A DNA stretch of 64,000 bases from the NCBI GenBank assembly GCA_030390025.1, contig CM059431.1, positions 155,622,001 to 155,686,000 on the forward strand. Direction: 5' to 3'. The notes below the pieces were generated by a model. It did not search any database, had not been told where the DNA came from, and saw only the letters and a list, made by a program, of their open reading frames with translations. The stretch's first letter is position 1; each line of letters opens with the position of its first letter. The position numbers and the translations under genes are program-made. Source of the DNA: Squalus acanthias. Its lineage: Eukaryota. Of this stretch, positions 21,815 through 34,600 are shown piece after piece.

Positions 21815-23570
21815 TCCAATCCCTCTACACCTGCATCCGCCACCAGGATGGACTGAGGGCGCTCTGCTTCTTCCTTGAACAAAGGCTCAACCAGTCCCCA
21901 TCCACCACCACGCTCCTCCGCCTGTCTGAATAGTTCTCATCTTCAACAATTTCTCCTTTGACTTCATTCACTTCCTCCAAATTAAAGGTGTTGCAATGTG
22001 AACCTGCACATATCCTAGCTATGCCTGCTTTTTCGTGGGACATGTGGAACATTCTTTGTTCCAGTCCCAGTCAGGTCCCCTCCCTCACCTCCTTTTCCGG
22101 TACATTGATGATTGTATCGGTGCTGTTTCCTGCTCTCGCCCTGAACTAGAAAATCTCATTCACTTTGCTTCCAATTTCCACCCTTCCCTCACCTTCACAA
22201 GTTCCATTTCCGACTCTTCCCTTCCCTTCCTCGACCTTTCTGACTCCATCTCTGGTGATAGGTTATTGACAAACATTCAGTAAAAGCCCACTGATTCCCA
22301 GAGCTGCCTGGACTACACTTACTCGCTTCCTGTAAGGACTCTATTCCATTCTTCCAGTTTCTCCGTCGCCGCCGCAGCTGGTCTGATGATGCAACCTCCC
22401 ATACTAGTGCTTCAGAGATGCCTCCTTTTTCCTCAACGGAGGATTCCACTCTGCTGTGGTTGACACGGCCCTTGTCATTGTCATTCTATTTCCCCCATTT
22501 CTGCTCTCACACCTTCACCTCCCTCCTGGAACCAAGATAGGGTCTCCCTGGTCTTTACCAATCACCCCACCAGCCTCCACATTCAACGGACCATCCTCCG
22601 CTTTTTCCCCCAACTCCAGCGTGAACCCACCACCAAACCCATCTTCCCCTCAACTCCCCTTTCAGCATTCCGAAGGGACCACTCCCTCTGCGACACCCAG
22701 GACCACTCTACTATCACCCCAAACACCCCTTCCACTTCGCCCGGCACATTCACGTTGAAGCACAGGAGATGCAACACATGCCCTTTTACCTCCTCCCTTC
22801 CCACTGTCCAGGCCCCCAAACACTCCTTCCAGATGAAACAGCGATTTACTTGTACTTCTTGCAATTTAGTATACTTTACTCGCTGCTCACGATGCGGTCT
22901 CCTCTACACTGGGGAGACCAAACGCAGATTGGGTGACCGCTTTGTTGAAAACCTCCGTTCAGTCCGCAAGGGTGACCCCGAGCTTCCGGTCACCTGTCAC
23001 TTTAACTCTCCGCTCCACTTCCACTCAGACCTCTTCGTCCTCGGCCTGTTACACTGTTCTAATGAAGCTCAACGCAAGCTCGAGGAACAGCACCTTATCT
23101 TTCGATTAGACACTTTATAGCATTCTGGATTCAACATAGATTTCACACATTTCAAACCATATCCTCTGCCCTTAGCTTTTTTCCAATTCTTGTTTTTCTA
23201 TCTCTCACATTAGCAGGTATCTTTTATTACCTAAGTGCCATTTACACTTCATCTAGAGCCATCTTTTGTTTCTAATTTGTCACGTTACCATCTCATTTTG
23301 CCTTGCACCATCATTCCTGTTGTCTCTTAATCTCTCCTGCCTTCCATCTATTCACAGACCTTCTATTTTGTTCTTTCCTACCTCCCCCTTTCCCTACCCC
23401 TGCACTTGCTTAGAAACCTGTTGCATCTCCAGCTTTTTCCAGTTCTGTCGAAATGTTATCGACATTATCTCTGTTTCTCTCTCCACAGATACTGCCTGAG
23501 CTGCTGAGTGTTGGCAGCATTTTCTGTTTTTATTCCAGATTTCCAACATCTGCAGTATATTGTTTTTGTG
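21815..23570 (+). mobile_element. Penelope-like retroelement (RT + GIY-YIG), decayed
   Basis: LFRYIDDCIG (RT). CNTC...NLVYFTRCSRCGLLYTGETKRRLGDRF (GIY-YIG). 3' repeat tctctccacagatactgcc...cagcattttctgtttt has a broken hammerhead remnant at ~23441-23475. Confidence 0.9.
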
Positions 23571-24059: not shown

Positions 24060-27000
24060 CGCCAGGTTGACGTAGCTAAAAAAAGGGAAGAGGTCCTACA
24101 AGTAGAATTTAGGGAGTTAGGAGCCAAGCTAAAAAGTAGGACCTCGAAGGTAGTAATCTCTGGATTACTACCAGTGCCACGTGCTAGTAAGAGTACAGAG
24201 AACAGGATAGTTAGGCTAAATACGTGGCTTGAGCAGTGGTGTAAGAGGGAGGGTTTTAAATTTTTGAGGCATTGGGACCAGTTTTGTGGTAGGTGTGACC
24301 TATACAAAAGGGACGGTCTACACCTGTGCAATGATGGAACTGATGTTCTCGGGGTAAATTTTGATAAAGCAGTTCGGGAGCATTTAAACTAGTATGGCAG
24401 GGGGCTAGAAACCCATGTAGTGAAATAGAGGAAAGTGAAAGGCAGACAGAAATAAATGGTAAAAAGGAGAGGAACAAAAAACAAAGGGCCAAACTAATTC
24501 ATAAAAAATGTGAGCATAAAAAAAGCCTGAGGGTTTTATACCTTAATGCGAGAAGCATCAGGAACAAGGTAGATGAATTAGCTGTGGAAATAGAGGTTAA
24601 TAATTATGATCTAATTGGGATTACGGAAACATGGTTGCAGGGTGAGCAGGGCTGGGAGCTTAACATACAGGGGTATTCAGTATTTAGGAAGGATCGACAA
24701 AAAAGAAAGGGAGGAGGGGTAGCATTGCTGGTAAAAGAGGGGATAAATGCAATTGAAAGGAAGGATATTAACTCAGTTAATACAGAATCTATATGGGTGG
24801 AGCTAAGAAATAGCGAGGGGCGAAAAACATTAATAGGAGTGGTATATAGGCCTCCAAATAGTAAAATAGAGGTTGGGGAAGGCATCACGAGGGAAATTAG
24901 AGAAGCGTGCAATAAGAGCACAGCTGTCATCATAGGTGACTTTAACTTACATATAGATTGGACTAGCCTAATCAGTAAAAATAATGAGGAGGAGGAATTC
25001 CTTGAGTGTTTAAGGGATGGTTATCTGGATCAATATGTCGAGGAACCAACTCGGGAACAGGCTATATTGGACTGGGTACTGTGCAATGAGAAGGGACTAA
25101 TTAGTAATCTTGTTGTACGGGGACCCTTGGGTCAGAGCGATCATAACATGATCGATTTCTCACTCGAAATGGAGAGCGAAGAAATTGACTCAGAGACTCA
25201 GGTCCTGAATTTAAACAAGGGGAATTATGATGCCATTAGACGGGAACTGAGTAGGTCTGATTGGACAACGTTCCTGGGAGGACTGGAGGTAGATAAACAA
25301 TGGCAAGCATTTAAAGATAGAATGACAAAATTGCAAAAATTGTTTATACCAATCTGGCATAAAAGGAAATCTAAAAAGGTGACTCAACCGTGGATAACAG
25401 GGGAAATTAGAGACAGCATAAAATCCAAAGATAGGGCGTATAAAATAGCCAAAAAACGCGCCAGAGCGGAAGATTGGGAACAGTTTAAGATAGAGCAAAG
25501 GAGGGCAAAGGGCTTAATCAAGAAGGGCAAAATAGCTTACGAAAGCAAGCTGGCGGAAAATATAAAAACTAACTCCAAAAGCTTTTATAAGTATATCAAG
25601 AGGAAAAGACTGGTGAAAACCAAAGTTGGTCCATTGCAGTCAGATACGGGGGAATATATAATGGGAAATAAGGAAATGGCAGACCAACTAAATGCATACT
25701 TTGGGTCAGTCTTTACGAAGGAAGACACAAAAAACCTCCCTGGGATATCGGGAAAAATAGGGACATTGGCAAAGGAGGAACTGACGCAAATCAATATCTC
25801 TAAGGATATGGTGTTAAGGAAGCTAAAGGGATTGAAGGCGGACAAATCCCCAGGGCCTGATAACATGCATCCTAGGGTACTGAAGGAGGTGGCCCTAGAG
25901 ATAGCGGATGCACTAAGCATGATTTTTCAGAATTCATTAGACTCGGGAACAGTGCCCATGGATTGGAGGGTAGCTAACGTTACCCCACTATTCAAAAAGG
26001 GGGGTAGGGAAAAAGCAGGTAATTACAGACCTGTAAGCCTTACATCAGTTGTGGGCAAAATGCTGGAGTCCATCATTAAGGATGAAATAGCCGAGCACTT
26101 AGCAAATGGGGACAGGATAGGACAGAGTCAACATGGATTTACAAAGGGTAAATCGTGCTTGACTAATCTATTGGAATTTTTTGAGGGAGTAACTGGTAAA
26201 ATAGATGGGGGAGAGCCAGTAGATGTGGTGTACCTGGACTTCCAAAAGGCCTTCGATAAGGTCCCACATAAAAGATTAGCATGGAAAATTGAAGCTCATG
26301 GGATAAAGGGGAAAGTATTGACGTGGATAGAGAACTGGCTGTCAGATAGAAAACAGAGAGTTGGAATAAACGGCTCATTTTCTGAATGGCAGGCAGTAAC
26401 AAGTGGGGCACCACAGGGATCTGTCCTGGGTCCCCAGCTGTTCACAATTTATATTAATGACCTGGATCAGGGAGTCGAATGCAGCATTTCCAAATTTGCA
26501 GACGACACTAAACTAGGAGGGGGGGTGGGCTCAGAGGAGGAGACCAGGAAGCTCCAGAGCGATTTGGACAGACTGGGTGATTGGGCGGATAAATGGCAGA
26601 TGCACTATAATGTGGACAAGTGCGAAGTTATCCACCTTGGGTGCAGGAACGGGAGGGCAAATTATTATTTAAATGGCAATAAATTGGGAGAGGGGGAAGT
26701 ACAGAGAGACCTGGGTGTTCTTGTACACCAGTCACTGAAGGCGAGCATGCAGGTGCAACAGGCGGTCAAGAAGGCAAACGGTATGCTGGCCTTCATAGCA
26801 AAAGGGTTGGAATACAGGAACAGGGATACCTTGCTGCAGCTGTACAGGGCACTGGTGAGACCACACCTCGAGTACTGTGTACAGTTTTGGTCGCCTCATC
26901 TGAGGAAAGATGTTCTTGCCATGGAGGGGGTGCAGCGGCGATTCACCAGGCTGATACCAGGAATGGCGGGATTGACCTATGAGGAGAGACTATGTAGTTT

Positions 27001-27428
27001 AGGGATGTACACACTGGAGTTTAGAAGATTGAGAGGGGACCTCATAGAAGTGTATAAAATTCTGACAGGTCTAGACAGATTAGATGCAGAAGGAATGTTT
27101 CCCTTGGCGGGTGAGAACAGAACTAGAGGACATAATTTAAGGATAAGGGCTAAACCATTTAGGACAGAAATGAGGGGGAATTTCTTCACTCAGAGAGTGG
27201 TGAACCTGTGGAACTCATTGCCACAGAGGGCAGTGTACGCCAGCTCATTAAATATATTTAAGAGGGAATTAGATATATTTCTACAGGCAAAAGGGGTTAA
27301 GGGTTACGGAGAGAAGGCGGGGACGGGATACTGAATTGAAGGATCAGCCATGATCTCATTAAATGGCGGAGCAGGCTCGAAGGGCCGGATGGCCTACTCC
27401 TGCTCCTATCTTCTATGTATCTATGTAT
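24060..27428 (+). mobile_element. Young CR1 LINE: 3' part of ORF1 (SGNH esterase), stop-free ORF2 and 3' UTR
   Basis: ORF1 remnant KVVISGLLP...RDGLHL...EHLN*, uninterrupted ORF2, tail ctatcttctatgtatctatgtat. Confidence 0.97.
24368..27334 (+). CDS. CR1 ORF2: APE endonuclease + reverse transcriptase, stop-free
   Basis: Frame open from 24368 (after TAA at 24365). Motifs LYLNARS, ITETW, GDFN, SDH, QGSVLGP, FADD and RPHLEYC. First in-frame ATG is at 25148. Confidence 0.93.
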   Translation, partial: SSSGAFKLVWQGARNPCSEIEESERQTEINGKKERNKKQRAKLIHKKCEHKKSLRVLYLNARSIRNKVDELAVEIEVNNYDLIGITETWLQGEQGWELNIQGYSVFRKDRQKRKGGGVALLVKEGINAIERKDINSVNTESIWVELRNSEGRKTLIGVVYRPPNSKIEVGEGITREIREACNKSTAVIIGDFNLHIDWTSLISKNNEEEEFLECLRDGYLDQYVEEPTREQAILDWVLCNEKGLISNLVVRGPLGQSDHNMIDFSLEMESEEIDSETQVLNLNKGNYDAIRRELSRSDWTTFLGGLEVDKQWQAFKDRMTKLQKLFIPIWHKRKSKKVTQPWITGEIRDSIKSKDRAYKIAKKRARAEDWEQFKIEQRRAKGLIKKGKIAYESKLAENIKTNSKSFYKYIKRKRLVKTKVGPLQSDTGEYIMGNKEMADQLNAYFGSVFTKEDTKNLPGISGKIGTLAKEELTQINISKDMVLRKLKGLKADKSPGPDNMHPRVLKEVALEIADALSMIFQNSLDSGTVPMDWRVANVTPLFKKGGREKAGNYRPVSLTSVVGKMLESIIKDEIAEHLANGDRIGQSQHGFTKGKSCLTNLLEFFEGVTGKIDGGEPVDVVYLDFQKAFDKVPHKRLAWKIEAHGIKGKVLTWIENWLSDRKQRVGINGSFSEWQAVTSGAPQGSVLGPQLFTIYINDLDQGVECSISKFADDTKLGGGVGSEEETRKLQSDLDRLGDWADKWQMHYNVDKCEVIHLGCRNGRANYYLNGNKLGEGEVQRDLGVLVHQSLKASMQVQQAVKKANGMLAFIAKGLEYRNRDTLLQLYRALVRPHLEYCVQFWSPHLRKDVLAMEGVQRRFTRLIPGMAGLTYEERLCSLGMYTLEFRRLRGDLIEVYKILTGLDRLDAEGMFPLAGENRTRGHNLRIRAKPFRTEMRGNFFTQRVVNLWNSLPQRAVYASSLNIFKRELDIFLQAKGVKGYGEKAGTGY

Positions 27429-33950: not shown

Positions 33951-34600
33951 ATATGAATTATTATTTACTGTGACCATGTTTGATTTAAACCGTGTAGTTC
34001 TTTGCCTTCTACTTTTGCTTTTCTCCTTCCTGTCTTTTGCTTTTATCATTGTTTCCCTTTCTCTGTCTCCCTGCTCAGGTTCCCAACCCCCTGCCACTTT
34101 AGTTTAAACCCTCCCCAACAGCACTAGCAAACACTCCCCCTAGGACATCCGATCCGGCCCTGCCCAGGTGCAGACCGTCCCGTTTGTACTGGTCCCACCT
34201 CCCCCAGAAACGGTTCCAATGTCCACGGATTTTGAATCCCTCCCCCTTGCACCATTCCTCTAGCCACTTATTCATTTGGAATATCCTCCTATTTCTACTC
34301 TGACTAGCACGTGGCACTGGTAGCAATCCTGAGATTACTACCTTTGAGGTCCTCTTTTTTAATTTACCTCCTAACTCCCTATATTCTGCTTTTAGGACCT
34401 CATCCCGTTTTTTACCTATATCGTTGATGCCTATGTGCACCACGACAACTGGCTGCTCGCCCTCCCCTCCAAAATGTTCTGTAGCCGCTGCGAGATGTCC
34501 TTGACCCTTGCAACAGGGAGGCAGCACACCATCCTGGAGTCTCGATTGCGGCTGCAGAAACGCCTATCTATTCCCCTTACAATGAATCCCCTATCACTAT

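Follow-up and report, generated by a model that had tools for sequence, protein, structure and literature searches.

Programmed -1 ribosomal frameshifting at the heptamer U_UUA_AAC is the likely route by which ORF2 is translated in vertebrate CR1 elements, a dominant group of LINEs in birds, reptiles and sharks, and it would yield an ORF1-ORF2 fusion protein. This reading, drawn from comparison of sequences, is proposed because a slippery heptamer lies in the required phase and abuts the ORF1 stop, ORF2 occupies the -1 frame and has no conserved AUG, the synonymous bases of the heptamer are conserved and a G-run follows at a fixed distance.

The junction and its young CR1 family

The window, that is, the whole stretch of 64,000 nucleotides of Squalus acanthias DNA analysed here, contains on its plus strand a CR1 LINE copy (24068..27428) that is truncated at its 5' end and belongs to a young family. 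The copy opens with a 3' remnant of ORF1 (24068..24392), which encodes the C-terminal part of an SGNH esterase, has no ATG and ends His-Leu-Asn-stop, the letters at 24381-24392 reading CAT TTA AAC TAG. Reading of the frames bore out the layout described in the original prediction: TTTAAAC, the predicted -1 shift site, is found at 24383..24389 in X_XXY_YYZ phase directly before the ORF1 stop (24390..24392, here TAG), while ORF2 is in the -1 frame, is open over 24368-27334 (988 aa) and has no in-frame ATG until 25148, past the whole endonuclease (PF03372, 4-225 of 225, within 24368-25147). Starting at the heptamer, a basic and poorly conserved linker in the -1 frame (24383..24526; stop-to-APE distance 137 nt) leads to the APE endonuclease domain (24527..25147), which thus lies entirely 5' of the first ORF2 ATG. 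The remainder of ORF2 from that ATG (25148..27334) retains a Pfam match to the reverse transcriptase (RT) alone (PF00078, E 4.6e-31), and is followed by the 3' UTR with its short terminal repeat (27335..27428). Just 5' of the copy, a plus-strand ORF at 22464-23120 seems, by eye, to come from a Penelope-like element, of which it would encode the C-terminal part with GIY-YIG.

A second junction, belonging to another, decayed CR1 subfamily, is located on the minus strand at 34099..34108, where the same heptamer is followed by TAA and preceded by Gly (GGT). The copy to which it belongs (window 35600-31000) has several foreign insertions that interrupt its ORF1 and linker, the junction being the same. 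Of the 6267 stop triplets in the window, 54 (0.9%) are preceded in phase by any canonical heptamer, so that a single in-phase case is suggestive only and the claim is carried by the conservation tests. As a feature of the family, the heptamer-stop junction is real and far beyond chance.

The original prediction, which speaks of a stop-free CR1, has to be amended in that the copy is 5'-truncated and without an ORF1 start codon. From about position 24068 it is colinear with a full-length member, with three mismatches 3' of the junction, and full-length copies begin about 1.1 kb further 5'. The window copy is probably not translated itself and, since it has no ORF1 start, the frameshift claim concerns the source elements of the family. 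This family is very young: 40 of 724 candidates from a junction search of the species' own genome were scored, and all were identical or nearly so over 321 nt. All 30 family loci retrieved show the same junction, and their first ORF2 Met lies 253 codons further downstream. Of these 30, 12 have a complete ORF1 of 315 aa and 26 have an ORF2 that is open across all 557 codons covered. The 5' boundary of one locus, L004, is common to ten loci, and the 5' UTR of the full-length element contains zero ATG. Within the 5' UTR, at L004:232-705, splice-donor-like and acceptor-like sequences were seen by eye; no joint is listed there, at low read depth.

With regard to domain content, ORF1 comprises a Cys-rich N-terminus and an SGNH esterase (Pfam PF13472), as does in its esterase part the ORF1 protein of PDB 4c1b (match E 1.9e-29), presumably that of zebrafish ZfL2-1, and ORF2 comprises the APE endonuclease and the RT (Pfam). 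No solved structure was matched by sequence for the endonuclease region, and a domain search of ORF2 found no protease domain. The element ends 3' in short repeats and 5' truncation is present, a short-repeat 3' end instead of poly(A) and frequent 5' truncation being traits of the CR1 clade. We take the element to be CR1 on the basis of this architecture and of the known traits of the clade, the tree having been built from the ORF1 esterase only. Its nearest named ORF1 homologs come from sharks and rays; one shark-type CR1 ORF1 (P0014) is filed as Pseudomonas aeruginosa, probably owing to contamination.

Conservation of the heptamer in DNA and in ORF1 tails

The conservation tests relied on 115 candidate loci, consisting of one locus from the young family, the minus-strand copy of the window, 90 own-genome loci retrieved with three proteins and 23 metagenome loci picked as vertebrate-type from 80. 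Twelve were excluded as the ORF1 end fell outside coverage or the contig ended, leaving 103 junctions. TTTAAAC occupies the position predicted by ORF1 homology alone in 92 of the 103, a count in which two of the three protein queries, by ending in Leu-Asn themselves, bias the amino acids recovered and not the codons; the rest are five one-letter variants and six junctions out of register via indels or truncation. A check suggested along with the original prediction, for synonymous Leu-Asn codons that break the heptamer, turned up no in-register junction with another Leu codon (0/103), and the lone synonymous Asn change (AAT) still makes a canonical heptamer.

In every lineage the stop adjoins the heptamer, be it TAA, TAG or TGA, and this variation bears on splicing, by which an upstream, AUG-bearing exon would be joined to ORF2 near the junction. 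Such a route could draw on the donor-like sequences seen by eye in the 5' UTR and on the TAG after AAAC, which is acceptor-like in the window's family, but the AG is absent in the TAA and TGA lineages (76 of the 103 junctions) and the 5' UTR has no ATG to supply. RNA reads, which bear on the splicing objection raised with the original prediction, agree with this: two raw RNA runs that cover the junction at depths of about 85 and 105 list no joint there. The test is a weak one, as the reads come from both strands and many copies; they argue weakly against splicing and are silent on source-element expression. Splicing is therefore judged highly improbable.

The frameshift reading gains more from the codons themselves. 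Stop-free representatives were obtained for 13 of 19 clusters, eight of them own-genome and five that we take to be 'bird-type', aided by their 3' repeat, and the median four-fold-site identity among these 13 is 0.43. Among 15 invariant residues other than Met and Trp, the terminal Leu alone is single-codon, being TTA in 13 of 13 representatives, in which TTA has a 13% share of Leu codons; the lineages are related, and these and the following counts are not independent trials, for which reason no P value is given. The terminal Asn is coded by AAC in 12 of the 13. All 13 have T as the X base, the last letter of codons for seven different amino acids (H, G, S, A, C, N, D), compared with a background of 23% T at third positions. 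As judged from these codons, the heptamer is held beyond coding need.

ORF1 proteins were also compared by their tails, the 150 best matches in a 50%-identity library giving 80 distinct tails in which 20-45 residues separate the catalytic motif from the C-terminus. In 49 of the 80 the last two residues are Leu-Asn (38 tails), Gly-Asn (10) or Lys-Asn (1), the dipeptides encoded by XXA_AAC; at offsets 1-9 these dipeptides appear in at most two of the 80. The residue preceding Leu-Asn is unable to end in T in only one of 38 tails; ahead of Gly-Asn stands Gln in nine of ten, and a G-ending codon is always possible there, as it is in nine further Gly-Asn proteins among 19 new matches. Leu-Asn tails extend 25-39 residues and Gly-Asn tails 24-28 residues after the catalytic motif and, given that the lengths vary, the dipeptide tracks the stop and not the fold. 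Among named proteins, a Leu-Asn ending occurs in those of sharks and rays, sturgeon, eel, turtles, lizards, a snake and alligator, the reptile and fish taxa being supported at protein level only. In a quick tree of ORF1, the careful search being unfinished, 22 Leu-Asn proteins form one clade (support 94) and three fall outside.

That vertebrate CR1 ORF1 proteins conserve Leu-Asn is what would be expected if the motif were kept for some other reason, as a protein C-terminus or as an RNA or DNA signal such as a TATA-like box or a packaging site, with ORF2 coming from another transcript or start. However, the synonymous bases cannot be fixed by protein need, the dipeptide goes with the stop rather than the fold, and an internal transcript would still be without an AUG for the endonuclease. 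Furthermore, L2-type esterases do without the dipeptide: the match to the ZfL2-type esterase structure stops at residue 311 of the 315 of ORF1, and L2-type ORF1s have no terminal Leu-Asn or Gly-Asn, unlike CR1 ORF1, so that the signal is not shared with them. An origin of this kind is considered improbable.

ORF2 frame, start codons and the downstream region

A frame of ORF2 that varies relative to ORF1 would be difficult to reconcile with frameshifting, and this point of the original prediction was examined in copies with an endonuclease match. The -1 frame is found in 64 of 95 such copies and in 28 of the 35 whose ORF2 is open over at least 300 aa, and in 12 of 17 clusters it is the most frequent one. 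The exceptions listed mostly deviate by 1-2 nt from the usual linker length of their own family, and the 31 of 95 copies outside the -1 frame are read as decay. In open copies, the stop-to-APE linker measures 92-197 nt across 12 lineages, and the -1 frame usually has its stop 1-5 codons 5' of the heptamer. One subfamily (L119, L124, L128, L131, L132, L135) has a G-run of unstable length behind the heptamer, with long G tracts in some copies, and this is a likely source of copy-level frame loss.

The distribution of start codons is the ground on which frameshifting has to be weighed against termination-reinitiation, as in L1 and SART1, where a restart at a nearby AUG or non-AUG codon gives a separate ORF2 protein; the heptamer and the G-run would then be part of the reinitiation signal. 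Such a mechanism sits well with a stop that always adjoins the motif, and its best evidence is an ATG at codon 4, 2 nt past the stop, in three of four bird-type open copies, together with an ATG at codon 19 in all 22 open copies of one own-genome subfamily. On the other hand, the youngest family has no ATG ahead of the endonuclease in 30 of 30 copies, and 12 of 54 open copies are ATG-free up to the endonuclease; in the other 42 an AUG is present in the entry interval, at places that are lineage-specific and not shared among lineages. No AUG in the vicinity of the ORF1 stop was conserved among the 54 open copies, a result with which a restart at a non-AUG codon is compatible. Moreover, reinitiation gives no reason to expect that the X base is invariant, that Leu has a single codon, or that both switch together to G_GGA_AAC, a switch which itself rests on one DNA sequence (L032). 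SART1 has separated ORFs or stop-start AUG signals. For human L1, a preprint (bioRxiv 10.1101/2020.06.18.158667) describes ORFs that are separated or meet in a stop-start AUG, and ORF2 made by reinitiation. CR1 resembles both in being a bicistronic LINE RNA with low ORF2 output, and differs from both in that its ORFs overlap in -1, with a slippery site and no shared AUG. Taken together, reinitiation is an unlikely origin of CR1 ORF2.

Under frameshifting, the region 3' of the heptamer is where a stimulator would be sought. GGG at +10..+12 and G at +18 past the heptamer are present in 15 of 15 lineage representatives and, in the window, the G-rich motif, a candidate stimulator, spans 24400..24408 on the plus strand and begins exactly 10 nt past the heptamer. 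The conserved TGGCAGGGGG..AACC motif of the original prediction has to be redefined accordingly, the conserved part being the G-run with its fixed 10-nt spacing. The first G of the run falls on the third position of codons for several amino acids, and the two that follow belong to a Gly codon of the -1 frame; protein need may thus contribute to its conservation. Classical -1 frameshift sites usually need a 3' stem. The earlier statement that no convincing pseudoknot is visible holds as far as stems are concerned, which is what the folds cover, no conserved stem being present in them. Nine single folds gave no local 3' structure (z -1.9 to +1.0), nor did the downstream region of the 13 representatives (z -1.6 to +2.0), and the consensus fold of 15 junctions has zero pairs. 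A conserved counterpart of the stem-loop or pseudoknot that canonical -1 sites have 5-9 nt downstream was not found in these folds, and the region offers few partners for pairing.

Other candidate structures were rejected. An upstream hairpin ending at the heptamer is present in the window family and is not conserved (z -2.2 to +1.3). For a long-range partner of the G-run, the best duplex sites differ among ten elements; one duplex match 630-680 nt upstream recurs in six elements, the window's family not being among them, and probably reflects C-rich Pro codons. A G-quadruplex is not favoured, the G4Hunter-type score being at least 1.2 in 12 of 15 and only 0.64 in the window's young family.

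According to the mechanism proposed, tRNA-Leu and tRNA-Asn would re-pair one base back at the heptamer. Most ribosomes would stop at the ORF1 stop and make abundant ORF1 protein, and the minor product would be an esterase-endonuclease-RT fusion. The pause probably derives from the adjacent stop, from a factor that would bind the G-run 10 nt past the heptamer, or from both, instead of a stem-loop; this is the weakest step of the proposal.

Sister clades and comparison with known systems

From the Gly-Asn group DNA is available at a single locus, L032, where G_GGA_AAC-TAG is followed by a G-run and the contig ends before ORF2. No further Gly-Asn DNA was found in viral contigs or prokaryote genome contigs, the own genome has no close Gly-Asn member (best 42%), and viral contigs gave no match to the ORF1 alignment. 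Two queries with strict cut-offs found no other ORF1 types in the own genome, which does not imply their absence. In the quick tree, the 11 Gly-Asn proteins fall in a clade of 27, the other 16 of which end differently, and such mixed endings among relatives indicate that the signal is not universal. Some relatives of the Gly-Asn group (P0175, P0211, P0236, P0280, P0284, P0285, P0201) end in Phe-Phe, Phe-Phe-X, Phe-Leu-Gly or Lys-Asn, endings that, as far as the proteins show, other slippery heptamers (U_UUU_UUY, A_AAA_AAC) could encode.

A different arrangement is seen in distant esterase-ORF1 LINEs from metagenomes, among them L051, L056, L060, L061, L064, L069, L074, L082, L085, L089, L092, L093 and L102. 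Of 22 loci picked, 21 have TGA as the ORF1 stop and a C directly behind it, with CTA as the next triplet in 13; in 12 of them the endonuclease starts in the same frame as ORF1. UGA-CUA is a stop-codon readthrough motif, and the TGA-CTA junctions of this sister clade look like a different recoding route, namely UGA-CUA readthrough.

As for systems already described, U_UUA_AAC and G_GGA_AAC are among the shiftiest heptamers, as stated in the part of review PMC5009743 covered, from which 'CR1' is absent. The CR1 heptamers are identical to those of coronavirus 1a/1b and retroviral gag-pol, and in CR1, too, a structural ORF is predicted to be fused to a -1 polymerase ORF. In contrast to the coronaviral and retroviral sites, CR1 has no conserved downstream stem and a stop adjoins the heptamer in every lineage, and the domain search of ORF2 gave no protease. 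The CR1 junction is, in short, a retroviral- or coronaviral-like -1 site that fails the criterion of a structured stimulator. In this respect it can be compared with PRRSV nsp2TF, for which the same part of PMC5009743 describes CCCANCUCC 11 nt 3' of the shift site, bound by nsp1beta-PCBP. Both have a short unstructured motif at a fixed 3' distance, in CR1 the G-run after its 10-nt spacer, although the CR1 motif is G-rich and not C-rich, partly encodes Gly in the -1 frame and would be bound by a protein that is putative. Among APE-type non-LTR retrotransposons, the Dictyostelium elements TRE5-A and TRE3-A depend on a -1 frameshift to translate ORF2, as stated in a figure legend of a review (PMC5911963). 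They have the APE-RT layout of ORF2 in common with CR1, and differ in belonging to an unrelated clade with an unrelated ORF1.

Full-text literature searches found no paper on CR1 frameshifting, and none of the papers found answers how the AUG-less ORF2 of CR1 is translated; subscription journals and Repbase notes are outside this scope, and an earlier proposal is possible. The covered parts of PMC5006619 and PMC4255032 hold nothing relevant on CR1 frameshifting.

A broader picture is conceivable and is put forward tentatively, as something we regard as possible rather than probable: jawed-vertebrate CR1 may have kept a structure-free -1 shift for more than 400 million years, relying on the stop and on a protein bound to the G-run, with the RT made as a Gag-Pol-like fusion under control by the host or by the element itself; sister LINE clades may use G_GGA_AAC or UGA-CUA readthrough instead, in which case recoding, and not reinitiation, might be the rule in esterase-ORF1 LINEs. 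Should frameshifting in CR1 be true, its RT would be synthesized as a fusion with the ORF1 esterase, in a fixed proportion, and both the annotation of CR1 ORF2 and its expression in assays would change. CR1 would then provide a natural and very abundant -1 site that seemingly does without a structured stimulator, and a retrovirus-like design within a vertebrate LINE, unlike the reinitiation model of L1.
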